DNA from: Mycoplasmatales bacterium
Lineage (GTDB): Bacteria > Bacillota_I > Bacilli_A > Mycoplasmatales > JABAAY01
NCBI GenBank assembly: GCA_014238225.1
Contig: JABABL010000003.1
Span: 1,692 to 65,691 of the forward strand
Direction of reading: 5' to 3'
Length of the DNA: 64,000 nt
In this document: positions 11,834-38,668 of the stretch, one piece after another
Numbering within the stretch: the first letter of the stretch is position 1
Layout: each line of letters begins with the position of its first letter
Notes under the pieces: model-generated
What the model was told of the DNA's origin: nothing
The model's database searches: none
Seen by the model: only the letters and a program-made list of their open reading frames with translations
Translations under genes and position numbers: made by a program

Positions 11834-12157
11834 TTTTTTATCAATCAAAGCAATCATCTCTTGGGATATATCTAATCAATTCATTGCATTCATAAATTGA
11901 TCTTCGGCGTGTATGGAAATAAGTTCCATGCGAGTTACTTCTCCCCGTGCTTCTTTTTTTTGTAGATCTAAATGATGAGTACTAGCTTCTTGCAAGTAAA
12001 ACCTTGCTTTTTCTAGTGATTTATTAACGGACTCTTCATCCTCATCTTTAGCAAATTTTCTCAAGGCAATTACAGAATAGGACTTTGATTGACCGCTGCT
12101 TGCGATGATTTGCATTGCTATTTTGTACTGATCTTCTTTACTAATTTTTGTCATCAA
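11813..12157 (-). CDS. PTS EIIA component, lactose/cellobiose family (114 aa)
   Basis: ORF 11876..12157 extends through TGA 11876-11878 to TAA at 11813-11815. It has the helical EIIA-3 pattern with conserved His in ISIHAEDQFMNA. The 3' end overlaps the convergent DUF871 gene by 21 nt. Confidence 0.85.
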
Positions 12158-12944: not shown

Positions 12945-13691
12945 TTACTTATTATAAAAAATATTTTGATCGTGTTTTCTTTTAACAGCATCGTTATGAT
13001 TATCCCCACCATCAACGTTTGAACTATAGTAAATAGGAACATCATAATCAAGATTAGATAATGTTTTTGTAACACCAATCACAATCATGTTCATTATCGA
13101 AGCACCAGTAACCGTTGATGTTGCCCCAACTTTTTCTTTTATATTTTTTATCTCTACTACGGCATCACCTTTTAGTCCACCATCATCAATAACAACATCT
13201 GCAAAATCCTTTAATTTTTTGCCCGAAGAGTGTCTGGACTTTGTTTGTTCCGAATGATTCATATTGGTTATGGCAACAACACTCATTCCTTTTTCTCTTC
13301 CTAATCGCGCCATTTCAACGGGAAGTCCATTAATTCCAGATACCGAATGTATTATTAGCACGTCCCCCTCTTTGTAATTTGAGCTTTTTAATATTTCAGT
13401 TGCTAGAGGTTCAAACCTTTCAAGAACAGTGCTTATAGTAACAGGAGTAGCACTTAATGAAACACCCTCACAAAAAATACAATTTATCAATGCTAAACCA
13501 CCAGCTCTATACATTGCTTCCTGGGCAATTAAATGAGAGTGACCAGTGCCAAACGTTCATATGTTTCTTTCATTCATTATTGCTTTCGCTATTAAAGCAA
13601 CGGCTTCTTCTATACTTTTCATACTTTTGTTTTCAATTGTTTCAAGAGATTTTCTTATTTCTTCTAAGTAGGTTTTATACACATTTTTCAT
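12945..13691 (-). CDS. SIS-domain phosphosugar-binding protein, UPF0309 type (248 aa)
   Basis: ORF 12945..13514 extends upstream through one TGA to ATG 13691. Sequence reads MKNVYKTYLEEIRK...NIWTFGTGHSHLIAQEAMYRAGGL...IIHSVSGINGLPVEMA...SRHSSGKKL...VIDDGG...VGATSTVTG, matching the recalled UPF0309 pattern. Confidence 0.8.
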
Positions 13692-13827
13692 CACGATATT
13701 ATTGTAATAAATATTATTGTCCATATAACTTTATTCACTTGAAATGTTCTTTTACGATTAGTAAGGGCTGTATTTATGCTGTAAATACAAGGTCCGTCAT
13801 GCAAAGTTTGATATTATATAGTTATCT

Positions 13828-19541: not shown

Positions 19542-19652
19542 TAAGGTATTATACTATCGTTGCTCTAATTCAGAATAAAGAAATAACACTAAGTTAAGAA
19601 AACAAGGAGCAACAAATCAGTTTCAAAAATTACAAATAGTATAATCAAAGTA

Positions 19653-20711
19653 GTGATTCAAAAATATATTCAGAACGAAAAACATGTCGATGCATGATGA
19701 AAATATGTATTTAGATACTCTAAGTATATATTTTTTGCATTCTTAATTGCTATGGCTGCATATGGTTGTTTTGAGCAATTTGTAAATACAAATGTCGCGA
19801 CAGGTGGAATCGGTGCTGGCTTAGAAATTATTGGCGGAGGGCAACAATTTCTTTTCTACCACGTTGTTAACGGTTTACAACAAGTAAGTTATAATCCACT
19901 TCAAACCTTTATGCAAGCTTTAAGTCAAGGTAGTTTCTTCTACGCTTTGTTTGTTTGACCGTTGGGACAATTGGCTTATTCAATTTATGTTGGGTTCGGT
20001 GCGTCGGAAGTCGGTGCTTTTTTTACAATATTTTTTATCGTTATAATAATCAGAAGTTTTACTTTGATATTTACATTTAAAAATTACACACAACAAATTA
20101 AAATGCAAGCTGTACAAGTTAAGGCCGCGCAAATAAAAAGTCAGTACGATCAAAACGATAAGGAAGAAAAACGAAAAGGACAAATGGAAACCATGGCCCT
20201 TTATAAGAAGTATGGGGTAAAACCTCTTTCTTTAATAGGTTCTTCTTTTGTGACATTACCCTTCTTTTATGCGATGTATCGAGTATTTTCCTCTCTAAAT
20301 GTTTTGAAAACAGAGAACCTTGGACTTGTTCAATTAATTACTTCTCCAATATCTGGTTTATTATCCGGGCAGTTCCAATATTTGGCAATTATCTTAGTTG
20401 TTATTCCCATCCAGTTCGTTTCTTTTAAATTACCCACATGACTAGCAGCCTCTAGGAGGACAAAAGCACTAGATGCAAAGGCAAAAAAACAATATAAAAG
20501 TACACAACTTGTTAGCAACGTTATTGTTGTTGTTTTTGCTATTATTGCTATAACTGTACCCACATCACTGGCTTTATACTGAATGTTGTCTGGAGTTTAT
20601 ACAATTGTACAAAGCTTCGCAATCAATGCGTTTCTTAAAGGAAAATCCGGAAAACTCGCCCCTGGTAAAAAATCTAGGCGAAAAAATTATACCTATAATT
20701 TAGTATCTTAA
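19653..20711 (+). CDS. yidC: Membrane protein insertase YidC/OxaA (about 352 aa; start uncertain)
   Basis: Core sequence MQAVQVKAAQIKSQYDQNDKEEKRKGQMETMALYKKYGVKPLSLIGSSFVTLPFFYAMYRVF. ORFs 19752.. and 19962.. are in one frame through TGA. A lipobox-like IAMAAYGC at 19743-19766 implies a start upstream of ATG 19752. The only in-frame candidate is GTG 19653. Confidence 0.75.
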
Positions 20712-20712
20712 A

Positions 20713-22020
20713 ATGGAAAACACTTTCATCGCTTTAAGCAGTCCTTTTAATAAATCAGCAATTGCAATTATTAGAATTAACGGGGATAAAAGTTTAGAAA
20801 TAACTAATTCCTTTTTAATCAAAAAAGTAGAAAACTCTCGAGGCAAAAGATTTTTGCGTAAGTTTTATAACAATGGTCAATTTATAGATGAAGTAGTACT
20901 TAACTTTTATCCTGCACCTCATTCCTACACAGGAGATGATCTTATCGAGATTATGTGTCATGGGTCGGTATACATTATTGAACAAATAATTGCTTCTTAT
21001 AACTCTAAAGGAGTTAGATATGCGGGGCCAGGAGAGTTCACAAGAAGGGCCTTAATAAATTCAAAGTTAGACTTTGTGAAGGCAGAGTCAATAAATGAAC
21101 TAGTAAACTCTGAAAATAAACTTAGTCATGATTCAGCAATAAATTCATACGACGGAACCGTGAATAAGTTGTTTCGTGAGATAAGAAAGGAACTTAACTT
21201 TTTGTGAGCAAATTTAGAAGTTGATCTTGATTACCCTGAATTTGATAATCAGAATCTTGATAAGTCCATAATCAAATGCAGAATAGAGAAAATGCTAAAG
21301 TCATTAAAAGAAATAAACAATAATTCTGAAAGTGTCCTCCCCTTTTTAAAGAACATCACCATTTCCATTATTGGAAAACCGAATGTTGGCAAGTCTACTC
21401 TTCTAAATGCCTTGTTAAAAAACAACAAAGCCATTGTATCTGATATTCCTGGAACAACAAGAGATGTAGTAGAGGGTGAAATAAATATTCATAATCAAAA
21501 AATGAAAATATCGGACACTGCAGGAGTACATTCAACTGAAAAAATAGTTGAAAAAGAAGGGATTAAAAAGACTTTCGAAACAATCAAAAAAAGCAACCTG
21601 ATTATACATGTTTCAGATGATGGAGAATGAGAAGACATGGACATTCCAAAATCAAAAAAAATCATCTATGTTTATAACAAAATCGATTTAATTAAGAACC
21701 CATTAAAATCAGATGAATATGTGTGTATATCTGCAAAAAACAACAAAATAGACACTTTAAGTGGCGAATTGTTTGCATGGGTTAATGAAATGAGCGAAAT
21801 AATTGCAGACAATTGTCTAATTAATTATCGGCAGTGAAATATTTGTCAATTGATTCAAAAGAAAATGGAAGAATGACTTGAAAAATTCAATGCGATTCAA
21901 GAAGATCTACATGCATTCTTCTTAAATGAAATTAAACATTTATTCGATGAATTATTAGGAAAAAAAATAGAAGATAACCTAGAAAATACATTATTTAATC
22001 ATTTTTGTGTAGGTAAATAA
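20713..22020 (+). CDS. mnmE: tRNA modification GTPase MnmE/TrmE (435 aa)
   Basis: Three track ORFs are in one frame. G1 motif GKPNVGKSTLLNAL, G3 DTAG, and the C-terminal FCVGK tail typical of MnmE. Adjacent to yidC, as in many bacteria. Confidence 0.95.
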
Positions 22021-22056
22021 AAAAAATAGAAAAGAGTATTTATAATAAACACATAC

Positions 22057-23010
22057 ATGAACGAACAATATAAAATAGTTGCACTATCAAATTGTCATGA
22101 CTACGCCAAAAAAGTAAGTGCTTTAACATCTATCCCTATTGTCGATACGGTACAAAAAACTTTCTCTGATGGAGAGTTTTGAATTAGATTTGAAGAAACA
22201 ATTAGAAACAGTATCGTTATTTTATTTCAAACTATGTATCCAAACCCTTCCCAATCGGTATTGGAATTATTAATTACAATGGACGCATTAAGAAGAGCTA
22301 GCGCGAAAGAAGTTATTGTCATTGCACCATATCTGGCATATTCAAGGCAAGATAGAAAAATAAAAGGAAGAGATCCAATTACTGCTAAAGTAGTGGCAAA
22401 TATTTTGGAAAAAGTTGGACTAGATAGATTAGTCACATTTGACTTGCATTCCGGACAAATACAAGGGTTTTACGACATTCCTTTCGATGATTTATTGTGT
22501 TGACCGGTTTTGTTAATGAATTTTGAAAAATATAATGTTGATAATTTAGTTATCGTTGCTCCCGATTATGGAAGTGTAGTAAGAACTAAAGCTGTAGCTA
22601 AAAAGGCTAATTGCCATTTTGCCATTGTCTTAAAAGAACGACAAAAACATAATTCTGCAAGCGCCATTAGTGTAATTGGTGATGTTAGGGACAAAAATTG
22701 TCTTATTGTTGACGATATGATCGATACTGGCGGAACATTGAAAGCATCGGTCGACATGCTTAGAAAAAAAGGAGCGCGAGATATTTATGTCATGGCAACG
22801 CATGGAATTTTTAGTGGGAGCGCTTACGAAAACATAAAAAAAATGGATGTTAAAAAAATATTTGTTACTGATTCAATTGATCAAGGTAAAACCATTCAAG
22901 ACTCGAAAATTGAAGTTGTCGACACTTCACAGTACATAACACGTGTAATCGACTGCATTATAAGCAATCATTCCATCTCGGATGTTTTAGCTTATTTAGA
23001 AGGTAAATAA
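22057..23010 (+). CDS. prs: Ribose-phosphate pyrophosphokinase (317 aa)
   Basis: MNEQYKIVALSN...FSDGEFWIRFEETIRN...DLHSGQIQGFYDIPFDDL...IVDDMIDTGGTL. In frame through TGA codons. Confidence 0.95.
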
Positions 23011-23011
23011 A

Positions 23012-23581
23012 GTGTTTTTAATTGTGGGACTAGGAAATCCAGAAGAAGGTTATGATTTCACACGTCATAACGCAGGATTTCGAGCAATAAATTCGCTCTG
23101 TCGAAATTTAGACATAACACTAGATAAAACAAAGGACAATATTGAATTCAAGGTGTTACAAAATGAGAAAACTATAATTGCCAAACCTAAAACTTATATG
23201 AACTTATCGGGTACTCCAATTCGTGCACTAGTCAATTTTTATAAAATTTCCCTAGATAAAATAATCTTGGTACACGATGATTTGGATATTTCTCTAGGTA
23301 CTTACAAATATAAAGAAGGCGGGGCTTCCGCGGGACATAACGGTGTCAACGATGTACAAGATAAACTACAGACTATTGCCATGAAACGAATTAAAATTGG
23401 AATTGGCAAATCCACACTGGAAAATGTTCCTTCAAGAGAATGAGTCTTAATGCCTTTTTTGCCAAATGAGTTGCCTTTTTTAGGCAAGTGCATAGGAGAT
23501 TTGACTAGAAAAATGACCTTTTTTATAAAAAGTTCTTCCAAAAAAACTGATGTCTTGTCTGCATCGTATTTTCTTCCATAA
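23012..23581 (+). CDS. pth: Peptidyl-tRNA hydrolase (189 aa), GTG start
   Basis: FLIVGLGNPEEGYDFTRHNAGF and GGASAGHNGV motifs. Extends through TGA 23441-23443 to TAA 23579-23581, overlapping the tilS ATG (TAATG). Confidence 0.9.
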
Positions 23582-24822
23582 TGATTAAGAATATTTTTAG
23601 TTTGGATAGTAAAGAAAAATACTTACTAGCGTGTAGTAACGGAGTTGATAGTACAGTTGCTTTGCATATTTTCTTGAATTTAGATTTCAAAATAATTGTG
23701 TGCCATGTGGATTACCAACAACGAAAAGAGTCATCACTAGAAATTAAAAACATTAGAAAAATTTGTAAGAGCAAGGATGTTCCAGTCGAGAACCTAGTTG
23801 TTTCTGAAAAACATTCAGGTAATTTTCAAACATGAGCAAGAAAGATCAGATTTCTTTTTTTTGAAGAAATGGCAAAAAAACACAATACTCAAAACATTAT
23901 CATTGCTCATCACGAAAATGATTATTTTGAAAGTTATTTAATAAAAAAGGAAAGGAACGTTGTGAATAAAAGCATTGCTTTGCCAATAAAATCGAAATAC
24001 AATAATTTAATAGTTTACAGACCTTTTTTAAAAGTTCCTAAAAATGAAATATTACAGTATGCAATTAAAAACAAACTTCCCTGAGTTGAAGATGAATCCA
24101 ATGCCTCCATTAAATATTTGCGAAACGACATTAGGAGAAAAATTTCAAAAAAAAATAAGAAGGAAATAGAAACCCTAAGGAGTCAAATAAAGCTGGAAAA
24201 CTCAAAAAGAGAGAGTACAAATATTAAAGAAAAAAAAATGCTAAACGAGTGTAGCGATAAAAATAACATGAATTACAAAACTTTTTCTCAGTATAACTTG
24301 TCCGATAAAGTCTCAATACTAAAATTGTTTTTGATAGGAAATGAATTAAGATTTTCAAATAAATTTATTTACAGTGCAATAAATCAATTTGAGGGTAGAA
24401 AATCAAATGTTTCGCTTCCTATTTGTAATAAATTTCTTGTGAAACAATATAACACAATCATGGTTAAGGGTTCCCAGTACATGAATTTTAGAAAAGTTAA
24501 ATTCGTTGTCTCTGCCATAGAAGACAATAAAAACATAATTTTTTCATCCAAACCCTTTAATGGTTCTTCATGATTTTATATGAATACAGAGGACTTTCCG
24601 CTAACCATAACTAATGAATATCAAGGTTTAAAAATTAGTTTGGAAAACAATCGTCATAAAAAAATAAGTAGGTTTTATATTGATAAAAAGATCTCCATAG
24701 AGGAAAGACATAAAAAATTCATAATTATTAGTAAAAATAATAAGATCATAGCGATAGACAAAATATACCACGAAAATAAAAATAAAAAAAATGAGAAAAT
24801 CTTTTATAAAATCGTATTATAA
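23581..24822 (+). CDS. tilS: tRNA(Ile)-lysidine synthetase (413 aa)
   Basis: PP-loop LLACSNGVDSTVALH. Four track ORFs are in one frame joined by TGA. The prs-pth-tilS order matches Firmicutes synteny. Confidence 0.85.
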
Positions 24823-24846
24823 TATTCGTAGAATGGAAGGTGGAAC

Positions 24847-25056
24847 ATGAGTTTCATAAAAGTAATAGACAGAAATAGAGAACGAGAAAGTATAAAGTAC
24901 ATAAGTGCTACACGCATTATCGATATTTCAGAACACAAAGGTAGTTGAAAAATAACTTATTTAGCTACAAATGATTTACGTTTGACAGGGTATCTTGGAG
25001 ATAACTGAGAAGACGAATTAAATACTGCTGGTAAAGTTTTAGACTTATCTAAATAA
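24847..25056 (+). CDS. Small hypothetical protein (69 aa)
   Basis: ATG 24847, two in-frame TGA, TAA 25054-25056. Sequence MSFIKVIDRNRERESIKYISATRIIDISEHKGSWKITYLATNDLRLTGYLGDNWEDELNTAGKVLDLSK. No recognisable family. Confidence 0.4.
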
Positions 25057-25063
25057 ATATCAT

Positions 25064-25495
25064 ATGCTTCGTTTTCCAGTATCTGTTTCATACAAGAGAA
25101 ACAATAACTGCCTTAATGAACATACAGTTTTAAAGTCAATAGTAGGAAACTCCGCTAGAATTCACAATCAAAAAATGGCTTTTTTGATTGATGAAAGTGA
25201 AAAAAACCTACAAAAATTTTGGATTGAGAAAAATAAACAATGTTCTTTAGTACACCCCAAGGGATTTAAAATTATTACCTGCGTAAAAAGGAAAAAATTT
25301 AAGTTCAAGGTGTTCAAGGGTTATCCTTCAAAATTAATTTTTAAGCGAGAAACTATATGTAAAAAATACATGTTTCTTGACAGCGAATGCAAATGCAGTT
25401 TTGCGGTTAATTTTATTGTTGCAAAACTAGAAGCAAATAGATATCTTAGAGATTATAAAATTTGAGAAAACATCTTACCAGCGCTTGTAAAGTAA
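25064..25495 (+). CDS. Hypothetical basic, Cys-containing protein (143 aa)
   Basis: Track ORF 25064..25465 extends through TGA to TAA 25493-25495. It has 6 Cys and many Lys (…KGFKIITCVKRKKFKFKVFKGYPSKLIFKRETICKKYMFLDSECKCSF…). No family recognised. Confidence 0.45.
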
Positions 25496-25545
25496 TTTGT
25501 GATTTTTTGGTTTAACTTTTTAATATAATAACAACAAGGAGAAAT

Positions 25546-26028
25546 ATGAATTTTGAATGTAAAGATAAAACACTAATTGGAAAGCCAATTGGCGTAGGAG
25601 AACAATTAGTTTTTAAAGCCGTTGACAAACACATGGAGGAATACCATTCTTCTGATATAAAAGAAGGATGAAAAATTATTTCAGTAGTTCCCAGCTTAGA
25701 TACAGGAGTTTGTTCAAAACAAACAAGAACTTTTAATAAGTTAGTTTCGCAAATTGAAAACACCAGAATTATTACAATTTCTTGTGATTTACCTTTTGCA
25801 CAAAGTAGATACTGTGGAGCCGAAGGAATAGACAAGATAGACATTGTTTCTGACTACAAGTATCATGAATTTGGTCATAAAACAAACCTACTTATTAAAT
25901 CTGCAATGCTTCTTACAAGAGCAGTATTGGTTTTAGATAAAAATAACATTGTTAAGTATATTGAAGTCTGTGAAGTCTTAGACAACGAGCCGGTTTACGA
26001 TGCAGTTTTAAAAGCTATCGAAAACTAA
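25546..26028 (+). CDS. tpx: Thiol peroxidase Tpx (160 aa)
   Basis: Not in the track as one ORF because of a TGA at 25669. AAGGAG RBS 8 nt upstream of ATG 25546. Active-site motif ISVVPSLDTGVCSKQTR. Track ORF 25512..25844(-) is its antisense shadow. Confidence 0.9.
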
Positions 26029-26076
26029 ACTTTATTTTTAATTACTAAATGTTGTAATTTGTTTTTAAGCGACAAA

Positions 26077-26880
26077 TTATTTGGATATTGTAATACCCAC
26101 AAAAGAAGAACCGCTGCCAGTTATAAAGAAAAGGTCATATTTTTTATTTTTATGAAGATGAAAGTATCGTTTTTGTAATTCGGGAAACAAAATGAACAAA
26201 ACTGTTTCTAGGGAATTGAACATTGAAGACAGCAATTCCGTGTAATTATTTGCTAACAAGGCTTTCTCGACATCATCAATTTTTGGATGTATGGTTTTTG
26301 ATAGGTCTAAGTGATTAAATATTTTTTTTGTTGATGATTGGTAATCAGGATTTAAGAAGACATCAATATTGAAGAAATTTTCAAATGAAAGAGGTGTAAC
26401 TTTTTCTCCCTGACCAGTTACTCTAGCAGCCCCCCTACACAGAAAATAGGGAACATCCGATCCAAGTTTTAACCCCAAGTCACTCAACGTCTCAATAGAA
26501 AGGTTGAGGTTTAATTGTTCATTAAGAAACAATAACGTTTCACCTGCATTGCTACTACCCCCACCCATTCCAGAACCGAGAGGAATTTCCTTTGTGATGT
26601 GGACGGTGATACCTTCTTTAAAATTAGTTTTTTTTCTTAACAATTCAATAGCCTTGTACACTAGGTTATCTTCTTGTTCAATTGATATATGTTGATTTTT
26701 GATTTTGTTTTCTAGATTTATTTTTGTGTTTCCAGATTTATGAATCTCAAATGAAAGAGTATCTCAGATTTTTTTGTAAGGCACCATTATTGTGTCTATT
26801 TCGTGATAATTATTAGTTTTTTTGCGGATAACGTTTAATGCTAGATTAACTTTTCCATAACTTTTTACTTCTTGTTTCAT
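26077..26880 (-). CDS. GHMP-family kinase, IspE (4-diphosphocytidyl-2-C-methylerythritol kinase)-like (267 aa)
   Basis: N-terminus MKQEVKSYGKVNLALNVIRKKTNNYHEIDTIMVP (IspE-type KINLxL..R.DGYH) plus GHMP ATP loop PLGSGMGGGSSNAG. ORF 26077..26661 extends upstream through one TGA to ATG 26880. Confidence 0.75.
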
Positions 26881-27107
26881 TTTTTTACTATACCATTATT
26901 CTCAATTCTGTTCTTCTAAATAAAATGAATTTTTAAACAAAAAGAAATATGTTCCTCAAAAGATTTATTTCATCACTGTGTAGTGATTCTGAACTAAACT
27001 GTTTGAATAGACAGGAGTTTTTAAATGTTTTGGTTTCGCAGCACTATAGTTACCGGTGAAAAGTGTAAGACCACATTAATAAGAACGGAAATAATAGTGA
27101 CTATAAT

Positions 27108-27483
27108 TTAATCAATCAAACTGTGTGTTAGTAATTGAGAGATAATGCTAGATCCTTCATCACAATAAATATTTTGAAAAGAACGCTCTTTGAGTTTGGC
27201 AACTAATTGTCTTAATGGACCAGAACACAGTTTAGAATTCCCAATACTACTGATTTCAGATTCCGAAGCAATATAAACTTTTTCATTCTTATGGGGCATT
27301 CGTACCCCATTTCTATAACTTTGTTGTAAATATTTTTCCTAACTATCACGGTATCAAGGAAGGAATCACAATCTTCAGAATTGTATTCCGAAAGATAACC
27401 GATTCCTTCCTCTTTATCCGTTATATAACCATCTAGTGTCATCGATATATATAAGCAACTAATTTACATTCTTTGTTTTTCAT
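27108..27483 (-). pseudogene. RibD_C / dihydrofolate-reductase-like domain protein disrupted by two frameshifts
   Basis: There are three frame segments. ATG 27483 gives MKNKECKLVAYIY, then a shift at the (TA)4 tract 27445-27453. Next comes ISMTLDGYITDKEE...IEMGYE, then a shift at the C4/G4 run 27293-27296. Last comes PHKNEKVYIASE...LLTHSLID*. Removing one TA and adding 1 nt would restore a protein of roughly 124 aa with the family pattern (..YI.MSLDGyI... WP..k..V.S). Confidence 0.6.
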
Positions 27484-27629
27484 AAATATGATTTTCCCGT
27501 CATAAATTTTTATTCTTCTCTATTTTTCCATTAGAGAGGAGAAGGGACATTGAAAAATAAAAATTTGTCTCTTTCCGGTTTGAATTATAATAGTAACAGT
27601 TACTAAAATAATAGTGAAAAGGAGTATTT

Positions 27630-29744
27630 ATGAAAAGAAGGACAAAAAGACTTACACAAGCAATCTTAGGAATTGGAGCATTAAGCACCGGTGCTGCAGT
27701 TACAACAGTTGCACAAGCTTGTAATTTAGATGATCTTATCGGAACAGTCGATAACGAAACTTTAGAATCAGCATTCGCAAACGTCTTAAACACAATGCAC
27801 AGTTACAACGGTTCCTTTTCTAACAATGATATATCGTGAAATGACCCAGTCAGTAAAATAATTCTTAATACAACAATGCAATCACTAACTTCATTCTTAT
27901 CCGATACCGTTGCGCAAAGAGATGTACACGTTGTAGACATTAAAGCATTTAGTTTCGACTATAGTATTGATACAGAAAACGAATTCACTGCGGAAATATC
28001 TAACATAAACGGTTCTGCACTATTAAGTGATGACAGAGTTGTATCAATTGTACCGGACGGTAATGCAAGCGTTTCAATACTTAACTTATCGCCAGAAAAT
28101 TATAGAAATGCTTCTATTCAATGGTCGGGAATAAAATTTGACATTGAAAACCCTCGTGATCCAAGTAACGGAGGAGACACTCCAATAAACCCAGTGGATC
28201 CCACGGATCCAGGAGAATTCGATAGTGCTAAAGATGTATTTTTTAATGCTGTTAGCGAATTAACAAATTATACTTCTGGAAAACAAATCAGCGATAATTC
28301 CAGAGCAATACTGAACTCCTTCGGGAATTACAGTTATAAATCGATAACTGAACTTAATTTTTCTTTTGTTATCAGAGAAGAAGTAAACGCCAAGGAAGCA
28401 GACACTTTTTATGCTGAAATTCTTGACTTTTCAGGAGTGGTTGTAACTTACAATAATCAATCTGTTAATGTGGTGTCCACTTCCACTGCTGGTATTGGTA
28501 TAGCTGGGTACAGTTCTAGTAATTTCTGAGGAGCTGGGTGATATGGAATTATTGAGGGTGGAGAAGCGCCAAACGATACTGCTCCACTACCTGAAAACCC
28601 CGCATTAGTCAACAACCCTTACAATCCTGCTAACGGCCAAATGCCAATCAGTGCAACAAAATGAGGCACTGGCTTTGCTCCATTTTACGATACCGCAGCT
28701 TGACAAAGTGAATGGGGATATAAGGACGCTTGAATGGGTCAAGGAATTACCAATCCACTAGCTTTTACTCAAGCGACAGGTTTGAAAAGTTTTACTACTG
28801 CCTTTATACAACAAGATGGACAAGTTAGTGACCGTATACACGGCTCATTGGCTGGTTTAGATAATGATCAAACTGAAGCAGGAATGGACTTTTTCGAAAA
28901 CGCAAAAGGATATATGGATTATATAAAAGAGAATGACGGACATATAACGCTATCGTTTGGTGGCGCTGGAGGAAGCCCTATTTGAACATTCGCTGCAGAA
29001 CACGGCTTTAGTCAAGCTGATTTAAACGCAGAAATGAATAGAATTATTGATTTATATGATGTGGATGCTTTAGATTTTGACATAGAAGGCGCACATGCTA
29101 ATCCAGAATTTCCAGGAGTTGAAGAAGGAATTAAAATGCTAGCAAATTCTCTTGTTGAAATAAGAAACAAAAAGCCAAACATGAAAATAAGTATGACGTT
29201 ACCTGTCCTTGGTCGTGGACCAAATGGAAACGACAAAGAAACATTATGAGTTACTGGACTACAAGCAGCTAACGGGTTAGGGTGAGTTGATGTATTTATG
29301 GATAAACTTGGGCCAACCTTTATCACTAATGCCATGAGCATGGATGGTGGAGACCTAGGTTTTGCTTACTATTCAAATATGGAAGATGGCGGTGCACAAT
29401 TTGTTATTGACAGTATTGCTGGAGATGGCAACGGAGATAATGGTGTTAAAAACCAAGTTAAAGCTTCCGCTGCAAAATATGGTTACACTCTTACTGAAGC
29501 TCAAGCTTGAGCATTAACAGGCGTAACACCTATGATTGGACAAAACGACACCTTACCTCAAAGACTTTATCCTGATGGATGAAGAAAAGTTGTTCAATTT
29601 GCTAAAGATAAAAATATGGGAATGCTTTCTTATTGAGCAGGGGAAAGGGACCACTACACTGGCAGCACCGGTCCATATAATAACATCGGTATTGAAGGAA
29701 CAAAGCCTTTCGAATACATGGCAATTGCTATGGGCATAGCATAG
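27630..29744 (+). CDS. Surface lipoprotein: two family-type N-terminal modules fused to a GH18 chitinase / endo-beta-N-acetylglucosaminidase-like catalytic domain (704 aa)
   Basis: AAAGGAG RBS; MKRRTKRLTQAILGIGALSTGAAVTTVAQAC-NLDD lipobox. Five track ORFs are in one frame joined by TGA. GH18 catalytic motif D-A-L-D-F-D-I-E at 29064-29087; also ITLSFGGAGG, GVTPMIGQND and LSYWAGERD. TAG stop at 29742-29744. Confidence 0.85.
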
Positions 29745-29793
29745 TATTTTAATTATTTAAACAACGTTTAAAAGAATTCCAATGAATTAATAT

Positions 29794-29822
29794 AAAAATA
29801 AACCTTTAAGAGGTTTATTTTT
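29794..29822. terminator. Bidirectional intrinsic-terminator-like hairpin between convergent lipoprotein genes
   Basis: aaaaataaacct-ttaag-aggtttattttt: a perfect 12-bp stem (AT-rich, 3 GC pairs) with a 5-nt loop. It is flanked by T-rich sequence on the + strand and A-rich sequence on the other side. It sits 50 nt after TAG 29744 and 5 nt from the stop of the 29827 gene. Confidence 0.55.
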
Positions 29823-29826
29823 ATAT

Positions 29827-31758
29827 TTAAGTGGTTATTACAGCTTGGCAACCCTGAACATCTCCAGGAGAAGAGGCATTACTACCACTAAATACAACTG
29901 TAATGCCGTTCATGGATGGACCTCGATCACCACTAAGGGTGTACGGATTAGATTGTCCACCATTTTCGGTAGCGTCACCCATGATATTAGGGAAAAGAAC
30001 TGTGTAGGACCCATTAGTTCGAGTGACATCAAAAATTGTAAGAGCATTATAGGATCAATCCAAAACAGTAATATTAACTCCGCCTGCAGGAGCCGCAACA
30101 AATCCCGCAGCAATTGCATTAGCAGCGGCCAGTATTCTTGGATTATCTAATATTGAACCAATATTAAACTCTCTTATACCACGATTATTCATGTCATCTA
30201 TAAGTCCCGAGAGAACAGTTGATTCTGGCATAAGCCTACCTAAGTTTGAAGACGCCAGTTCTACTTGAAAAATACCGCCGTTTTCAGTAATTCGTAATAT
30301 TATTTCTGCATTAATAACTCTAATGTCTCTACCATTTAAGGCTTGTCCAATGACCACAGAAGGGCCTCTTGCAGTTATAGCAACATTTCAGGTTGTTGCA
30401 TTCAGTTCTGTAATATCTGAAACAGAAGCAACATTAAATGCATTGTTTTCAATTCTACCAAAGGTGAAATTTTCTGAACCATTGTTTGTTGCAGTCCCTA
30501 ATCTTTCTATTATTAAAGTACTTAAGGGAGATGGACTACTGGTATTTGAAGTATAACCATTAAGACTGTTAACAGCGATAACTATCACACCTATTTCTGC
30601 TGATGTTTGATTTAGTCCAGTAACACCGTTGGGGGCAATTATCAGCATGCCAGTGCTACTATCAATTGTGATTGCAATATTAGCCATCCCACTAACATTA
30701 ACAAGATCTCCTGTTGCGGTTCCTGTTGCGTTCGTTCTAACAACAATTCCGGCTTGAGGATCGATGGAAATGTTTGACGATGTAATCATCGTAAAAGTTA
30801 ACGATTCCAGTGTTCCGTTTAGAACACTATTTATGGAAGCTAAAAAATCCATTCCCAGTTCTGTAGTAGGGTTTGAACCAGCCGCATAATTACTTAACTC
30901 ATTTATCCCATTAATGATGGTTTGCTCCACCGACACAGGTGAAGTTAAAGTAGTCGTTCCAACAGTGAATTGTCTGTTTGTTTCTGTAAGAGTAAACGAC
31001 ACATTATCAAAAGAAGTTGATATATCACCATTGGATGATGTTCCTAATATTCCCACATTTGAAATAGCAACAACATATCTGTTGTCGCCGGGTGTAATTG
31101 AACTAGTTGTAATGTTTGAAAAAACAAGGGAGTTTAATGTAAAACCAGTTGGTAAAGCAATCTCAATAGACGATAGAACGGCTTGAGCAATTATATTTGA
31201 AATTATTGTTTCACCTGTGTAAGTTGAAAGAACATTCACACCATTAACAATTGTTTCCTCGACATTATTAGCGGTTATCTGAGTAGCTGTTCCCGCCGAC
31301 AATGATCCATTGACAACATTAATCACAAGAGTCAAGGAACCAGTTATTGTATAAAAGTCATCCTGATTATCACTAAGAACCCCTGTTCCCATCAGAGGTA
31401 GATTAGACAATGTATAAGAAGCTCCACCAGTGTCTTGAGAAACGAGAGTAGATGTAGCCGCAATTGAACCAAGGGTTTCGACTGTAAATGTTGTACCAGA
31501 TGGGGAATTTAAAGGAAGTAAAGAAGTATTTAATGAACTCAACATTTCATTTGCTAGGGAATCAAGAACAGGAGATTGACCCATAGTAACATCATAATTA
31601 CTTAGTTGGTTAATGCTGTTTACAATACTTGTGATATCTTGCTGCACATTTCTTTGATCGGTTCCACCACATGTTTGAGCAATAGCTGCTATAGCTATGC
31701 CTCCAGCAACTGCCGAAGAGCCCAAAAGCGTGGTTATTTTTGTTTTATTCTTTTTCAT
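29827..31758 (-). CDS. Modular surface lipoprotein, family member (643 aa)
   Basis: MKKNKTKITTLLGSSAVAGGIAIAAIAQTC-GGTD. ORFs 30388..31758 and 30055..30357 plus the tail to TAA (29827-29829) are in one frame through TGA. Four modules open with IVNSINQLSNY, IVNGVNVLSTYTG, IINGINELSNYAAG and VIAVNSLNGYTSN. Confidence 0.8.
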
Positions 31759-31912
31759 TTTTTACCTAATTTCAAGACTATTCTATCAAATTACTTATGC
31801 GGATAATATTATATTGTGCTTCGGGAGGGGCAGAAACAATTCACTAAGGTAAGTTCCCAAATATTTGAAAGATAAAACACCATTTAGTTTTTTCTGTTGT
31901 TATAATTGGTTT

Positions 31913-32944
31913 ATGAATATAAAAACACTGTATGTTGTAGATACAAAAGACACAAATCCCTATACAAACTTAGCAATAGAGGAATATTTGGAGAAAACTT
32001 GCGTTAGCAAAACAAGCGTAATTCTAATGATTTGACAATCCAAAAAATCAGTTATTGTTGGGCATAGTCAGAATGTTATTACAGAAGTTGATGTTGTCAA
32101 GTGTCACAGGGACAATGTCAATATTGTACGCAGAAAAAGCGGAGGGGGAGCCGTTTACCAAGACGAAGGAAACTTAAATTTTTCCTTTATTTGATTTTGC
32201 GATAAATGCTCCATCGACAACACATATAACGTAGTTTTTGAAGCATTAAAAAACCTAGGATTGAGTACAGAAAAAATAAGTAAAAACGACATTTTGATCC
32301 ATCAAGGCGAAAGTGTTTTCAAAGTTTCTGGTAGTGCTTTCATTAGTAATTCTAAATTTTCATTGCATCACGGAACACTGCTTGTAGATTTGAACATTAA
32401 GGATGCTGAAAAGTACTTAACTCCTTCAGCTGAGAAATTAAGTTCAAAAGGGATAGACTCTATAAAACAAAGAATTACAAACATCAAAAATTTAATTCCT
32501 GACATTACAATAAAGAAAGTAAAAAAAGCTTTAATTAGTGCTGCAGAGACAGAATTTAAAGCGAAGGCAGAAGTTATTGAATCGCTAACGGAGACTAAAT
32601 TGCAGAAGATGCCTGAAGTCATGGAGTTAGAGAAACTTTACGAAAGCAAGGAATGGATTTATAGCAATCAAACATTGTTCCCGTTTAAAGAAACACACGT
32701 TTTTCCATGAGGAGAAGTAGAGATGAAGGTAATTATCGACAATAATTTTTTATCCAATGTTGGAATCACGGCAAATGTTAAAGATAAAGAATGAATTAGT
32801 AGAATATGTGCATTTATTCACAACAAAAAAACAAGACCTTCCGAATGACAAAAAATCATGTCTGAACTAGCCCAGGAACACCCCAAATATAAGAGAGAAT
32901 TTCTTGACGTAGGTAAGGTTTTCTTAAAGCCCTTTATTTTTTAA
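31913..32944 (+). CDS. lplA: Lipoate-protein ligase A (343 aa)
   Basis: MNIKTLYVVDTKDTNPYTNLAIEEYL... and RRKSGGGAVYQDEGNLNFSFI (compare E. coli RRSSGGGAVFHDLGN). In frame through several TGA. The 3' end overlaps lpd by 11 nt. Confidence 0.9.
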
Positions 32945-34370
32945 GTATTTTTGGAACATAATAGTCAGTAACAGTGCCCTCAGCAATTTCTGCCGATAAA
33001 GCAATTGTTTCGCTTAATGTAGGATGAGGATGCACAGTCATGGTTATGTCTTTGATGTGTGCTTTCATTTCGATTGCCAAAAGAATTTCAGAGATTAGAT
33101 CATCAGCGTGCTTGCCAACAATACCCCCACCAATTATATAGCCCTTTTCATCGAAAATTAGTTTAGTTTTCCCAAGAGCAGCCTCCGCAGTTAATGCCTT
33201 TCCAGATGCCATTCACGGAAGTTCGCCTTTTTGAAATTTAATTTTTTGCTCAACGCACTCCTGTTCAGTTAACCCTGCTCAAGCTATTTCAGGGGATGTG
33301 TATACAACTGATGGTATTATTCGCTCCTTATCACGAAAGACATTTTCGCCAGCAATTATTTCTGCAACAATTCTTCCTTCGTATGTTGATTTATGAGCCA
33401 GCATTGGATTTCCAATTATGTCGCCTATTGCGTAAATTTTTTCACAAGATGTTTGAAGTAATTCATTGGTGATAATGAACCCTCTCTCATCTACCCTGAC
33501 ACATGTTTTCTCTAAACTCAGGCGATCAGAGTTAGGAATTCTTCCTATTGAAACCACAATATTATCGAATTGTTCCTTAAATGTTTCTTTATTTTTAAGA
33601 TTTTCAAACTCCACAGTAAACTTCTTGTCTTTGCCCTTCATCGTTATTTCTTTAGTACCGTGTTCATAATAGATTTTCTTAAATCTGTCAGAATTAGCTT
33701 TCAAGAAAATATTCATTAAATCCTTGTCTACCATTGGTAGTAACCGGCTTGTTCTTTGCAAGATAGTAACTTCACTGCCTAGTGAACTATAAAATGTACC
33801 CATTTCTAAACCAATGACTCCACCCCCAATAATAAGCAACTTGCTGGGAATTCTTTCAACCTCTAAAGCCTCCGTAGAGTATCAAAATTTTAATGGAAGG
33901 TTTTCATCATCTGGCAGTTTTCTATTTCTTGAACCACAAGCTATGATACACTTGTCGTACTCAATTTTCATAACCCCTGTTTTAGTTTTTACCGTTACAG
34001 CAGCATCATTTAAAAATTCAGCTTCACCAATTATGTATTCTACTTTCCTTAAAGCCGCCATTTGTTTTAAACCTCCGGTCAACTTTTTTAGAATTTCTTG
34101 CTTTCATGCCACTAATTTCTTGGTATTTACTTTGAAAGTATCCTTTGTTTCTAACCCAAAAAGAGAAGCATGCTTAATTGTCTCTGCAGCTTCGGCTACA
34201 TGTAACAGAGCTTTTGAAGGTATACATCCCACATTTAAACAAACACCTCCAAGGGTTTCGTGTTTTTCCACAAGTGTTACATTTACACCCAAGTCGGCTG
34301 CTCTAAATGCCGCTGCATATCCCCCAGGTCCTCCACCGATGATTAATAACTGAACTTTTTTAGTTTCCAT
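32934..34370 (-). CDS. lpdA: Dihydrolipoyl dehydrogenase, E3 (478 aa)
   Basis: [24 protein letters not shown] fold and redox-active [10 protein letters not shown]. Four track ORFs are in one frame; the gaps were read and hold TGA only. Confidence 0.95.
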
Positions 34371-35809
34371 TATATTTTAATTATGTCTCCTGGTTTTTCC
34401 AGCATTGTTTTGACTTCTTCTAAAAACAATGACCCCTCTTTACCATCTATTAATCTGTGATCAAATGAAAGACTCAAAGGCATGGTTAACTTTATAGCTG
34501 GTTCCTTGTTTTTATCAACGATATAAGTATATTGTGCTTTACATAAACCCAATATACCAACATTCGGTCTATTCACTATCGGCGAAAAGTACTTTGTGGA
34601 TGTTCCACTAATGCTTGAAATTGTAAATGTTGAACCGCCCATTTCATCAGCGGAAAGTTTTCCCGCTTTTGCTTTTTCAGCTAAGTCAAAAATCTTTTCA
34701 CTTATTTCGTAGATTGTTAGTGATTTCGGTTCTACTATTGTTCCAACAACTAAACCATTAGGAGTGTCGATAGCTATTCCGATATTTGAAAAATTCTTAT
34801 AAATAACCTCGTTGCTTGCCATATCAATACTTGCGTTCATAGTTGGAAATTTTTGCAACGCAGCTGCAACAATTTTCACTGAAAAAGCTAAAAATGAAAT
34901 CTTTATATCTGGTTTAGATTTTTTTGCTTTCTTATACATACCAAAAATATCATCAATGTAAGAATCTTGATACATTGCTACATGAGGCACTTCTGCTGAC
35001 GCTTTTGCTAAAAATTTTGCAGAAAATTGCTTTATTTTGGAAAGTTTTTTTCGTTCTATTGTTCCGTATTTAGTAAATAGAGAATCAGGCAAAGGTTTTT
35101 CAGTTGGTTCAGCTACTGCATTGCCAGATTTAGACAGATGTTTTTCGATGTAATTTTTTGCAATCATTGTGTCAATTCTTCCAGTAGATGTTCGTTCTTT
35201 AATGTCAGCAGGATCAATATCGAAAGTCGTTATTAAGAATTTAGCGGCAGCTGTTGCGTATATTTTTAATTCTTTTAATTTTTTAATTTTGATAGCATGA
35301 CGAACCACTAATGCGGCTTGAGATTTTTTTAGAAGTTTATTTATTTCAGGTTTAAAATAATTTCGTTGTAGTGTTTTCTCTTCAGAAAGCGAAGACATTT
35401 CATCTTCTACTTCCTTTACCATTTCTTGAAAAGAAGAAGTTCCGCCCACTCCTTTTACAGTGGACATTACCTGTTCATTCTCATCTGGTTCATCATCTTT
35501 TACTTGTTCATCTGTAGCTTCTTTTTCTTTTGCAATTTTCACTTGCATGGAGGAGACATCTGTTTTTTCACTTTTTTCTGCTGCAGCTTCGTACTCTAAT
35601 AGATCCTCGCCCTCGACTATTTCATCGCCTGCTTCTTTTAGTATTTTGGTCACTTTTCCATCAAAATCAGCAGGTATATCCATGGTAGATTTCGCACTTT
35701 CCAATACAGTTAAAGCTTGACCATTAGTGACTAAGTCGCCTTCTTTTACTAACAACTCAGATATTTTTATTTCAACATCGGCACCGATTACTGGTATTTT
35801 AAATTTCAT
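34370..35809 (-). CDS. aceF: Dihydrolipoamide acetyltransferase E2, single lipoyl domain, AceF-like (479 aa)
   Basis: Lipoyl domain [25 protein letters not shown]...[11 protein letters not shown]; subunit-binding segment ([28 protein letters not shown]); catalytic [12 protein letters not shown]. The start overlaps the E1 stop region. Confidence 0.9.
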
Positions 35810-38548
35810 TTAACACTCCATAGGATTTTTTTTGTCATGCAATTTTAATCCGTTTTTCTTTATAAATTCTTCTAGTTTATCTTTATATTGCGAGTCTTTT
35901 TTTGACATTGCGTATAAAGCTACATAAGCGATAGTGTATCTATCCACTTCAAAAAATGTCCTCAAGTCAGCTCTAGAGCCACTACGACCAAGACCATCTG
36001 TTCCCAACACATAGTAATCATTAGAAATGTGCTGACGTATTTGTTCAGCATTTGACTTTATATAGTCAGAAGCTGCAACAATGGGGTTGTCGTTATCAAG
36101 CATGATTTCTACATGACTTTTCATCTTAGTATCATTGTTATAAATTCTCTGACGTGTTACCTCTTCACAATTTTTTCTTAACTCACCATATGATGTTGCA
36201 ATGTATATTTTTGAATCAATATTATATTGTGATCTCAAAATTTGTCCTGCAGCAATAACCTCAAGAGTAATGGTTCCAGAACCCACCAAATTAACAGAGC
36301 CGGTTGAATGGTTTGCAAACATGGACCTATACACGTATAAACCTTTTAAGATATTCTCCTCTGACCCAGATAGTAGAGGAGGATGTAAATGATTTTCATT
36401 CATAACAGTCATATAATAAAAATTACAGTTATTGTTTTCGTACATGTCTTTTAATCCTTGATACATTATAATTGCGACTTCGTAACCAAAAGTTGGATCA
36501 TATGTTTTGCAACCAGGAACGTAACTTCACATAACTAGATTGTGACCATCTTCGTGTTGTAAACCCTCACCATTCAAAGTAGTTCGACCAGCAGTTCCTC
36601 CAATTACAAAGCCCTTTGCTTTTGAATCCGCAGATGCTCAAACTAAATCACCAAATCTTTGAAACCCAAAAATCGAATAATAAATAAAAAAAGGTATAGC
36701 TGTAAACTCATGGTGAACGTAAGATGTAGCAGCAGTTAGCCACATTGCCATAGCGCCTGTCTCATTAATTCCCATTTGAAAAAATTGCCCTTGTTTTGAT
36801 ACACGATACTGTAACAGGGAACCAGCATCGTTAGGTGTATAGTTTTGTCCGCCAGGATCAAAAATCCCTATTTTATTAAACAAAGGCTCAATACCAAAAG
36901 TTCTGGCTTCATCCGTTGTTACAACAATTAACCGATCCTTTAAAATTGGATCATTAAAAAGAGTTGTTAGACACATCCCAAAAATCATGGTGGTTGATAA
37001 CTCACGGTTTTCAGAACCATGTACTATTACTGATAATTTTTCATAAAACTTGTTTATGTGCAATGTTTCAGGTTTGTATCTTCTGTTAGGAATAGGGCCA
37101 TTCAGTTTTTCTCTTTGGCTCATCATAAATTTATATTCATCAGACTTCTTTTCAAATTTTACATAAGGCAGTCTGTCGCCAGCAAGGTCTTTTTCAACCA
37201 ACCCGATATCCAACTTATTAGCGAAGTTTACCAACTGTTGTTTAGAAAGTTTTTTTTGACTGTGAGAAGAGTAAGATGCCCTTATTTTTGAATCAAAACC
37301 AGAGCCCTTTATTGTTCTTGCTAATATTGCAGTCGGACGATCTTTAATTCTAGAAGGGTTTAGGGCTCTATGATAAGATGCATAGACCACTTCTACAGAG
37401 TTACCTCCATAATATAGTTTTTCGCCATAATTAACATCTTCTGCTCAATCATTGATACCAAGAGTTTCTTTTAGGTGAGGAAGATATTCATCAAACAGTG
37501 CTCTTACAAATCCACATGGTTGTGACTCCAACCTAATCAAATCCCCATCCGTTAAATTTTCCAATACTTCTGCCACCGCACGATTATTACGCATATCCAG
37601 AAGAATTTCTAAAGGAAAATCTCAGGCAGCTTTAATAACTCTTCAACCATATCCAGAAAATATTCTTTCTAACTCGAAAACGATATTTCCGTTTCCATAT
37701 ACTGGTCCGTCTAGACCCAAAAGATTACAATTTACAATAAAAATTAAATTGTTCAAATTATACCTATATGCTAACCTCGCTAATCCAAACGACTCAGGCT
37801 CTTCCATTTCAGCATCCCCCAAAAACACTCAAACATGGCGATCAGGATTTTTTTCCACAAACCCCTTACATTCCAAGTATCTGATTCATAATGCTTGGGC
37901 AACGCCTTGCATTGCACCAAGACCAAGGGAAACCGTTGGAAATTGTCAGTATTCAGGCATTAAATGAGGATGAGGATAAGAAGATAGACCTTTGACAAAA
38001 ACTTCATTTCTAAAATTATTCAAGTCATCTTCAGTTAATATACCTTCCAAAAACGACCTTGCATAAATTCCAGGAGAACTGTGTCCCTGAAAATATATAA
38101 AATCAGATTTTGTCTTATCGTTATTCCCTTTTCAAAAATAATCAAAACCTACCTCGTATAAACTAGAAATTGACTCGAAAGTAGATAAGTGTCCTCCAAT
38201 ACCAGGAATGGATTTACCCGCATTTAAAACCATCGCTACAGCATTTCATCTAGTGTAATTTCTTATTCTTCTTACCAACCACGACTCTGTGAAATCCATT
38301 TTAGCGGCAGTTTGATAACTAAAGTTATTAAAAATTGGAAAACGAGCACTCAACATAAGTATATTGGGGAATATCGCTTTTTGAGGTAAAAGTATCGTTA
38401 TTAAATAATCAATGAATTTTTCTGAGTCTTCGTCTCCGTGAATACCAAAAAAATCCATTAAGTAATCAGTAATTTCTTGAAGTTCAGGGAAAGTTTTTTC
38501 TATATTGCCTTTATAAAACCACTCGTTTGTTAAATCTGTATATAGCAT
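35810..38548 (-). CDS. aceE: Pyruvate dehydrogenase E1, single-polypeptide (homodimeric AceE) type (912 aa)
   Basis: ORFs 35810..36466, 36638..37390, 37643..37828 and 38246..38602 are in one frame. All gaps were read codon by codon and hold TGA only. Motifs [33 protein letters not shown] and [12 protein letters not shown] parallel E. coli AceE. ATG 38548 is preferred over the track's TTG 38602. Confidence 0.9.
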
Positions 38549-38668
38549 CTCTACTCTACTGTAATAATACAGTAAAATGCAACAATGGAATTGAGAAAGC
38601 AAAAGAAAAAATTTAGGTATTAAATTATTTTTTTTTCTTGTATAGTAGAAATAATAAAAAGGAGCAAA

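Follow-up and report, generated by a model that had tools for sequence, protein, structure and literature searches.

Here, we describe a gene at positions 27630-29744 (+) of a 64,000-nucleotide stretch of contig JABABL010000003.1 (GenBank assembly GCA_014238225.1), which comes from an uncultured Mycoplasmatales bacterium; 'the window' means this whole stretch, and coordinates are positions within it unless another record is named. The gene encodes a 704-residue predicted lipoprotein in which two orphan modules precede a catalytic domain of glycoside hydrolase family 18 (GH18). The explanation that we favor, and consider reasonably probable, is that the protein is a lipid-anchored, cell-surface chitinase feeding a route made up of a phosphotransferase system (PTS), a GH170 hydrolase and NagA. 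Mollicutes have tiny genomes with few carbohydrate-active enzymes, and each extracellular glycosidase is therefore informative about their life in the host.

The assignment to GH18 lies far beyond chance. A phmmer search against the Protein Data Bank (PDB) gave an E-value of 6.1e-19 to 9buf, the hydrolase domain of Streptomyces venezuelae chitinase 1, and of 2e-9 to 2dsk, which like 3a4w and 3a4x is a structure of Pyrococcus furiosus chitinase AD2. BLASTP aligned the protein to E. coli K-12 ChiA at 26% identity over 302 aa (E 6e-13), so that the resemblance to ChiA noted in the original prediction, which had been made by eye from the DNA, is correct. The clade is divergent from the Pfam model PF00704, which scores 26.7 bits against a gathering score of 29.6 and matches aa 362-526 alone; membership of GH18 therefore rests on the PDB sequence matches and on the fold.

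The fold was modeled through P0004, a database protein that is 100% identical to the window domain over 98% of the domain query. The AlphaFold (AF2) model, built with a 120-sequence multiple sequence alignment (MSA), reached a predicted local distance difference test score (pLDDT) of 81.9 and a predicted template modeling score (pTM) of 0.87. Foldseek matched it to 9buf with an E-value of 1.7e-18, a probability of 1.00, a target-normalized template modeling (TM) score of 0.89 and a root-mean-square deviation of 2.8 Å. The P. furiosus AD2 domain follows at TM 0.80, and classical chitinases such as SmChiA trail far behind. Among the best 50 PDB fold matches, the nearest solved structures are all chitinases, and the domain belongs to the GH18 subgroup of PF-ChiA, Streptomyces chitinase 1 and E. 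coli ChiA.

A search with the GH18 domain returned 131 relatives. P0004 is identical over the compared region and P0005, from another contig that uses genetic code 4, is 43% identical, while the others are 22-32% identical, mostly multi-domain and often labeled chitinase or chitodextrinase in their sources. Most of these relatives carry a carbohydrate-binding module (CBM) of the CBM2, CBM5/12 or CBM4_9 type (PF00553, PF02839, PF02018), with or without FN3 (PF00041). A metagenome scan with a two-sequence mollicute GH18 profile found relatives of no more than 33% identity and no further mollicute copies.

The catalytic domain spans aa 346-704 (28665-29741, +) and is a (beta/alpha)8 barrel like those of PF-ChiA and E. 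coli ChiA. It had been described as a complete GH18 domain beginning near 28530; the completeness and the DxxDxDxE signature stand, but the start lies at about aa 346 (28665), after a linker. All of the motifs quoted for it are found in the translation: FAPFYD at aa 349-354, ITLSFGGAGG at aa 439-448, GVTPMIGQND at aa 631-640, LSYWAGERD at aa 666-674 and the catalytic D479-A-L-D482-F-D484-I-E486 (aa 479-486), which occupies exactly 29064-29087 (+).

Residue conservation was scored in a 40-sequence family alignment, in which D484 and E486 are invariant and D482 is kept in 39 of the 40 relatives. All 18 invariant columns are retained, namely F443-G444-G445-G448, D484, E486, G543, N567, M571-D572, T633-P634-M635-G637-N639 and W669-R673-D674. 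The SxGG motif reads S442-F443-G444-G445, where F, G and G occur in 40/40 sequences and S in 34/40, and the subgroup motifs N-x-M-x-M-D (N567, M569, M571, D572), T-P-M-I-G-x-N-D (T633-D640) and W-x-x-x-R-D are all present. The Glu that follows SxGGxxG in the family is Pro in our protein, as it is in the P. furiosus enzyme, according to both the 40-sequence and the phmmer alignments. Judged by these residues, the GH18 enzyme is apparently intact.

The protein can be read only with the appropriate code. The window has about 33% G+C and reads well only in translation table 4 (TGA = Trp), which we applied. Under this table, 27630-29744 (+) is a complete coding sequence, a single 704-aa open reading frame (ORF) with 12 in-frame TGA codons read as Trp; under table 11 the same interval falls into about eight short ORFs. 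NCBI, ENA and Logan all contain an identical 704-aa protein (P0125), encoded on a 196-kb scaffold of BioSample SAMN14422898.

At its N-terminus the protein carries what reads as a lipoprotein signal peptide (27630-27722, +; aa 1-30), with a basic n-region, a hydrophobic core and the lipobox V-A-Q-A-C31, that is, MKRRTKR-LTQAILGIGALSTGAAVTTVAQA-C31. The AQxC lipobox is common to five other lipoproteins of the window and to P0136, a homologue described below. The window also contains lgt at 56881-57978 (PF01790, E 8e-27), and no Lsp was seen within it. The earlier description of a lipoprotein with the signal peptide of its paralog family is borne out by these features, and the sequence supports the view that the protein is a membrane-anchored lipoprotein, presumably exposed on the cell surface.

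Between the lipid anchor and the barrel lie two modules and two linkers. Module A (aa 32-178; 27723-28163, +) has an opener helix, FANVLNTMHSY, a second helix and then about five beta strands. It is followed by Pro-rich linker 1 (aa 179-196, NPRDPSNGGDTPINPVDPTDPG; 28164-28217, +), which was read from the sequence and is unstructured in the model, and which has a similar counterpart in P0136. Module B (aa 197-309; 28218-28556, +) has the opener FFNAVSELTNY, a second helix, about five beta strands and the end motif NFWGAGWYG, and 15% of its residues are aromatic. The Pro/Asn-rich linker 2 (aa 310-345, APNDTAPLPENPALVNNPYNPANGQMPI; 28557-28664, +) is kept in the related genome bin29s, and P0136 has a comparable Pro-rich stretch ahead of its GH18 domain; an aromatic and Pro-rich linker region as a whole covers about aa 300-345. 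The secondary structure comes from an AF2 model of the TGA-free stretch aa 71-299, built with a five-row MSA of paralog modules, whose pLDDT of 42.5 is low enough that secondary structure alone was used: two helices, one of them the opener, about five beta strands, and disordered linkers. The opener helix of module A (aa 49-59) lies outside the modeled stretch and is proposed from the sequence, so only one helix of module A was modeled.

Searches for relatives of this region returned little. For aa 32-345 there is no match in Pfam, NCBIfam or the PDB sequences and nothing meaningful in PHROGs, and no homologue of the N-terminal region appeared in a word-indexed search of 5.8 billion proteins. 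An exhaustive HMMER search of aa 71-299 against 1.84 billion representatives produced one low-complexity repeat protein at E 5.5e-4, which we judged spurious as a module homologue. Absence from these databases is weaker evidence than it would otherwise be, because code-4 genes are often mis-called in metagenomes. Foldseek found nothing below E 0.001 with the aa 71-299 model; its top hit, the lipoprotein adhesin JlpA, at E 0.015 and TM 0.29, was not counted as a fold match, given the unreliable model.

The window encodes seven lipoprotein paralogs, none of which has a Pfam domain. BLASTP similarity among them is mostly limited to the signal peptide (from aa 1-31 to aa 1-52), and the sole paralog match of the GH18 protein is aa 1-31; the pair p4931 and p40668 shows 29% identity across about 160 residues, and phmmer found no matches between paralogs. 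What they share beyond the signal peptide is an opener motif with which modules begin, h-x-x-h-[NS]-x-[LI]-[ST]-x-Y, with two copies in the GH18 protein at aa 49-59 and 204-214; the opener peptides quoted previously are FANVLNTMHSYNG at aa 49-61 and FFNAVSELTNYTSG at aa 203-216. By our own reading of 13 regular-expression matches there are about nine clear instances in five window lipoproteins, spaced 111-155 residues apart, and matches occur 3.1 times per 1000 aa in the lipoproteins versus 0.9 in other proteins. In a leave-one-protein-out test with a profile hidden Markov model (HMM), which is partly circular in that the motif had served to pick the seeds, the GH18 protein was the top non-training ORF in a 297-ORF database (domain E 0.0066, whole-sequence E 0.15, module B only), and the reverse tests recovered p29827 (E 0.006) and p5595 (E 3e-5) at the correct positions. 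The paralog-family HMM did not recover P0136 (E 0.41).

'Two family-type modules' is thus acceptable as a description, if verified only in part: the opener motif and the shared signal peptide are real, and similarity to the paralog modules is marginal at profile level. The further claim, that the family module is a carbohydrate-binding unit and gives a function to all seven paralogs, is not supported: there is no CBM or other family match, the structural model is unreliable and homology to the paralogs is marginal. Fusion to GH18 alone assigns no function to the other lipoprotein paralogs.

Comparison with related genomes shows how these parts have evolved. In 'Mycoplasmatales bacterium bin29s' (JABAAY010000006.1), a contig is fully syntenic with the window over 17646-28534 at 84% DNA identity. 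Against it, the ratio of nonsynonymous to synonymous substitution rates (dN/dS) is 0.127 for the N-terminal region overall (83% aa identity), 0.085 for module A (89%) and 0.17 for module B (70%), while nine flanking genes range over 0.03-0.11 at 80-96% identity; the N-terminal value is comparable to that of tilS (0.106). This purifying selection implies that the N-terminal region encodes a functional protein and that its modules are not hypervariable antigens. Diversifying selection or antigenic variation of the modules was rejected, their values of 0.085-0.17 being in the range of housekeeping neighbors. The GH18 domain itself has a copy on the second contig of scaffold L002, from which it differs in 0.3% of residues at a dN/dS of 0.015.

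A more distant homologue, P0136, comes from a second code-4 organism in the same samples (L031 770-2467). It is a 565-aa protein with a signal peptide, a VAQQC lipobox, one module, a Pro-rich linker and GH18, and it has no Pfam match at all. Its single module is colinear with module A (27% identity, E 4e-11) and module B is absent; P0005 (L003), the near-identical cluster representative of P0136, is 43-44% identical to the window GH18 domain. The module-linker-GH18 fusion is thus shared by two divergent lineages, with module B a later addition. A P0136-type gene at L030 6492-8192 is in three pieces of 104, 293 and 74 aa, from assembly errors or as a pseudogene, and a Fic-domain gene lies downstream in L003.

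The sequence also shows a mosaic break. As far as the linker between module B and GH18, the window and the bin29s-type sequence share 73-87% identity, and two separately deposited contigs end at this linker, namely the bin29s contig (a GenBank metagenome-assembled genome, MAG) and the first contig of the ENA scaffold L002 (a metagenome assembly). The second L002 contig is 95-100% identical to window 28596-30576; its GH18 region is 99.7% identical at the protein level and has a synonymous divergence (dS) of 0.07, compared with 0.6-1.0 for the genome background. The mosaic involves window 28534-30576, the end of L001, and L002 1-1565 and 1666-3646. Either the scaffold is a chimera of co-occurring strains, or lineages have recently exchanged a GH18 cassette.

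A bolder proposal would combine these observations: modules A and B and the opener modules of the paralogs would be the founders of a new family of chitin- or glycan-binding surface modules confined to a clade of uncultured, host-associated Mycoplasmatales, and the GH18 cassette would be mobile between co-resident lineages. The first part draws on modules that are orphan, evolve at a dN/dS of about 0.1, adjoin GH18 in two lineages with 43-44% identity between their GH18 domains and, in module B, are rich in aromatic residues; the second draws on GH18 domains that are 99.7% identical in protein between genomes otherwise at a dS of about 0.8. If it were true, modules A and B would stand in for the canonical CBMs of GH18 chitinases. 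We think the combined proposal distinctly unlikely.

The genes for uptake and catabolism lie elsewhere in the window. A cluster at 8172-12452 encodes a lac/cel-family PTS EIIC (8172-10715, +; PF02378, of TIGR00410 type at 188 bits versus 236, below the subfamily cut-off), a MupG-like GH170 hydrolase (10715-11833, +; PF19200, PF05913), a PTS EIIA (11816-12166, -; PF02255) and a PTS EIIB (12144-12452, -; PF02302). A gene for N-acetylglucosamine-6-phosphate deacetylase, nagA, is found at 46843-48021 (-), with 260.7 bits to TIGR00221 against a cut-off of 225.65. Growth of Lacticaseibacillus paracasei BL23 on N,N'-diacetylchitobiose depends on each of three genes: chbC of a cellobiose-type PTS, chbE of family GH170, and nagA (PMC12791066). 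Since the same parts are present here, a route of cleavage, uptake, hydrolysis and deacetylation of N-acetylglucosamine (GlcNAc) compounds, as originally proposed, is plausible by analogy. Within the cluster, the EIIC has a Lys-rich N-terminal extension of about 400 residues without a Pfam match, the EIIC match starting at about aa 440, and the single ORF of the cluster left unassigned, 12480-12944, has no Pfam match.

The mannose branch that had been added to this route is not supported. Its genes, for a fructose-type PTS EIIABC (13828-16818) and a cytoplasmic GH38 enzyme (16842-19541, -), have MngA and MngB of the E. coli mannosylglycerate system as their best matches, though below the equivalog cut-offs. 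The pair suggests the use of an alpha-mannoside such as mannosylglycerate and not the salvage of N-glycan mannose. The gene for a SIS-domain protein (12945-13724, -; NF002805) adjoins the pair.

Put together, the mechanism that we favor would run as follows. The protein would be exported by Sec and then anchored on the external side of the membrane through diacylglycerol modification at Cys31, and the two modules with their two Pro-rich linkers would form a stalk of about 310 residues holding the catalytic domain off the single membrane. The GH18 barrel is predicted to cleave beta-1,4-GlcNAc polymers by substrate-assisted retaining catalysis, with E486 as acid/base and D484 orienting the N-acetyl group. 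Its likely substrates would be chitin or chito-oligosaccharides, from the host's diet or its own chitinous structures; this specificity is the one suggested by the nearest characterized relatives, all of which are chitinases. The cellobiose-type PTS at 8172-12452 could then import and phosphorylate diacetylchitobiose and short oligomers, which the adjacent MupG/ChbE-like GH170 phospho-hydrolase would split. NagA (46843-48021) would deacetylate GlcNAc-6-phosphate, which would enter glycolysis via a NagB encoded outside the window. The uptake steps are modeled on L. paracasei BL23 (PMC12791066), and the ecological role, which may be nutritional, on a Mollicutes MAG from oyster (PMC8125052). The ORF, its motifs, the fold, the pattern of selection and the presence of the pathway genes are directly shown; we infer the substrate, the endo or exo mode of attack, the exposure at the surface, what the modules do and how the enzyme is coupled to the PTS.

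Several observations weigh against a surface chitinase of this kind. The aromatic residue that follows M-x-M-D in the 40-sequence alignment (Y in 33/40, F in 5/40) is Gly573 here and Ala in P0005, a clade-specific departure that could alter activity or specificity; a literature search found no usable published account of the PF-ChiA active site that would explain the change from Tyr to Gly573. No recognizable chitin-binding module was found in the protein with Pfam or NCBIfam, and degraders of crystalline chitin usually need one. The PF00704 score is below threshold. The PTS, GH170 and nagA genes lie 15-20 kb from the GH18 gene and share no operon with it, and neither nagB, whose absence from the window had been noted correctly, nor a GlcNAc kinase was seen within the window. 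Finally, a supply of chitin in the sampled host (BioSamples SAMN14422896-98) is assumed.

Three other explanations share some of this evidence. Remodeling of host glycans, which we regard as unlikely but worth taking seriously, would have the GH18 domain act on N-acetyllactosamine (LacNAc) or LacdiNAc, mucin-type glycans or the GlcNAc of N-glycan cores, with the modules attaching the protein to host surfaces. A Mycoplasmatales relative is a host-associated type of bacterium, and its enzyme lacks a chitin-binding module and falls in a subgroup that contains E. coli ChiA; chitinases of enteric pathogens have been reported to act on host glycans. The literature also includes a paper on Salmonella ChiA and virulence (PMC9049553). 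The Y573G/A change and the low-pLDDT loop insertions near the barrel could likewise mean an altered specificity. The closest structures are nevertheless all bona fide chitinases, and no endo-beta-N-acetylglucosaminidase (ENGase) of the EndoS, EndoH or EndoF type occurs among the best 50 PDB fold matches or in the PDB phmmer matches. These fold neighbors ruled out EndoS-style cleavage of N-glycans or immunoglobulin G as the leading reading, and the likeness to ENGases that had been suggested is not supported. The downstream genes fit the use of diacetylchitobiose, a weak discriminator in that they would also fit the N-glycan core, and nothing links the modules to adhesion, the JlpA match coming from an unreliable model.

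It is highly improbable, in our view, that this wall-less bacterium scavenges peptidoglycan, with the GH18 enzyme cutting the peptidoglycan of neighboring bacteria as an N-acetylglucosaminidase or lysozyme, the PTS importing N-acetylmuramic acid (MurNAc)-GlcNAc and the MupG-like protein splitting it as a 6-phospho-N-acetylmuramidase. E. coli ChiA has been called an endochitinase/lysozyme, although its RefSeq name is 'endochitinase' only, and the GH18 cortex-lytic glucosaminidase SleL (4s3k) ranks 16 among the fold matches, but at a TM of about 0.45 versus 0.8-0.9 for the chitinases. The PTS is of the lactose/cellobiose type and not of the glucose-family MurP type, no MurQ etherase was detected in the window, where the nearby SIS protein matches a generic sugar-isomerase family, and no amidase was seen. 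As for the hydrolase, the sole biochemically characterized GH170, S. aureus MupG, has MurNAc-6P-GlcNAc as its substrate according to PMC12791066, whereas the GH170 of a cellobiose-type PTS cluster is tied genetically to diacetylchitobiose in the same paper. We also think it very unlikely that an impaired GH18 barrel serves as a chi-lectin-like adhesin on what is mainly a variable surface antigen. The lost aromatic after M-x-M-D (G573; A in P0136/P0005), the sub-threshold Pfam score and the location of the gene among surface lipoprotein paralogs would all suit such a protein, as would the change from Glu to Pro after SxGG, which departs from the family majority, though P. furiosus also has Pro. 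Yet chi-lectins typically lose the catalytic Glu, and our protein retains it together with both Asp residues and every invariant column; the motif is kept in the 43-44% identical homologue, the domain is under very strong purifying selection (dN/dS 0.015) and the N-terminal modules, at about 0.1, are not hypervariable.

The GH18 gene has candidate signals on both sides. A weak sigma-70-like promoter (27580-27609, +; TTGAAT-18-TAAAAT, nine of 12 consensus matches in a consensus scan) is only a candidate, because the number of such sites in the region is not above the shuffled expectation. A Shine-Dalgarno sequence, AAGGAG, read from the sequence, lies at 27619-27624 (+), 5 nt ahead of the ATG. 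Downstream, a perfect 18-bp AT-rich hairpin at 29789-29827 is a probable bidirectional terminator between the GH18 gene and the convergent paralog at 29827-31758 (-), whose stop codon it overlaps. The RNA folds at -16.5 kcal/mol (z -5.5), and 0/200 shuffles fold as well; a simple terminator scan missed the hairpin, whose G-C pairs are too few for it. Ahead of the GH18 gene, a stretch of about 750 bp contains no intact ORF. The gene upstream of it (27108-27442, -), which by eye and not from a family-library check we take to encode a RibD_C/DHFR-like reductase, lacks N-terminal sequence and has a frameshift at a CCCC run relative to the intact L002 orthologue, and is probably a pseudogene or a sequencing error.

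Some other features of the window deserve mention. At 4931-7325 (+), a frameshift seems to have divided a single lipoprotein gene of about 800 aa into two ORFs that overlap in different frames: 4931-5560, which carries the signal peptide, the lipobox and the first module, and 5595-7325, whose stop-to-stop span is 5472-7322. A 24-nt tandem repeat at 4118-4333 (+), with nine copies and 88% matches, encodes (GEEPGDGN)n in a 658-aa protein (2878-4854) that has an N-terminal hydrophobic segment and no lipobox Cys. The 542-aa ORF at 38939-40567 (+) is, by the look of its sequence and not from a family-library check, presumably a full-length GroEL, a protein that to our knowledge is absent from many mycoplasmas. 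The ORFs at 32934-38602 (-) likewise suggest by their sequences what we take to be a pyruvate dehydrogenase-like operon, which is adjoined by a lipoate-protein ligase gene (31865-32944) confirmed by Pfam.

Compared with known systems, the catalytic domain resembles those of 9buf and P. furiosus AD2 in its compact (beta/alpha)8 barrel and in its SxGG, DxDxE, M-x-M-D, TPMIGxND and W...RD motifs. It differs from them in sequence (only 21-23% identity when structurally aligned), in about 60 additional surface-loop residues and in having Gly for Tyr/Phe after M-x-M-D, and from PF-ChiA-like chitinases generally in that an N-terminal lipid anchor and two orphan modules take the place of CBM2, CBM5/12 or FN3. 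The 302 residues aligned to E. coli K-12 ChiA (YheB, b3338) include all of the catalytic motifs. ChiA, however, is an 897-aa protein with GH18 after about 600 N-terminal residues, a region of repeated chitin-binding domains, and is exported by a type II secretion system, while ours is a 704-aa lipoprotein without a known CBM. EndoS, EndoH and EndoF share the CAZy family and the catalytic chemistry, and membership of their subgroup is not supported. Some Spiroplasma genomes likewise contain chitinase genes. The Metamycoplasmataceae MAGs from octocorals (22% GC) belong to a different lineage.

Two published systems offer precedents. The chb/nag genes of L. paracasei BL23 likewise comprise cellobiose-type PTS EIIA, EIIB and EIIC, an adjacent GH170 (ChbE) and NagA; that cluster has ChbR and the DUF3284 protein ChbD and lacks an extracellular chitinase, and the Lys-rich N-terminal extension of about 400 aa sets the window EIIC apart (PMC12791066). 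A reduced Mollicutes MAG from the eastern oyster encodes a putative chitinase homologous to P. furiosus 2DSK, which has been proposed to supply a chitin/GlcNAc catabolic pathway (Pimentel et al., 2021; PMC8125052), and the description of the present capacity as unusual for a minimal genome was therefore overstated. Both proteins are Mollicutes-encoded with a 2DSK-homologous GH18 domain; compared by description only, the oyster enzyme has a C-terminal chitin-binding domain, whereas ours has none and carries N-terminal modules and a lipobox. What we describe is a sensible nutritional adaptation with published precedents rather than a new kind of system. By analogy with these precedents, GH18, PTS, GH170 and NagA would give an uncultured Mycoplasmatales lineage a concrete, testable path by which an insoluble GlcNAc polymer could feed glycolysis. 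The gene also offers a natural system for asking whether GH170 enzymes other than MupG act on phospho-chitobiose and whether orphan mycoplasma lipoprotein modules serve as substrate-binding or spacer domains. What differs is the architecture, a lipid anchor and orphan modules with no CBM, which stands as a second one beside that of the oyster Mollicutes chitinase.

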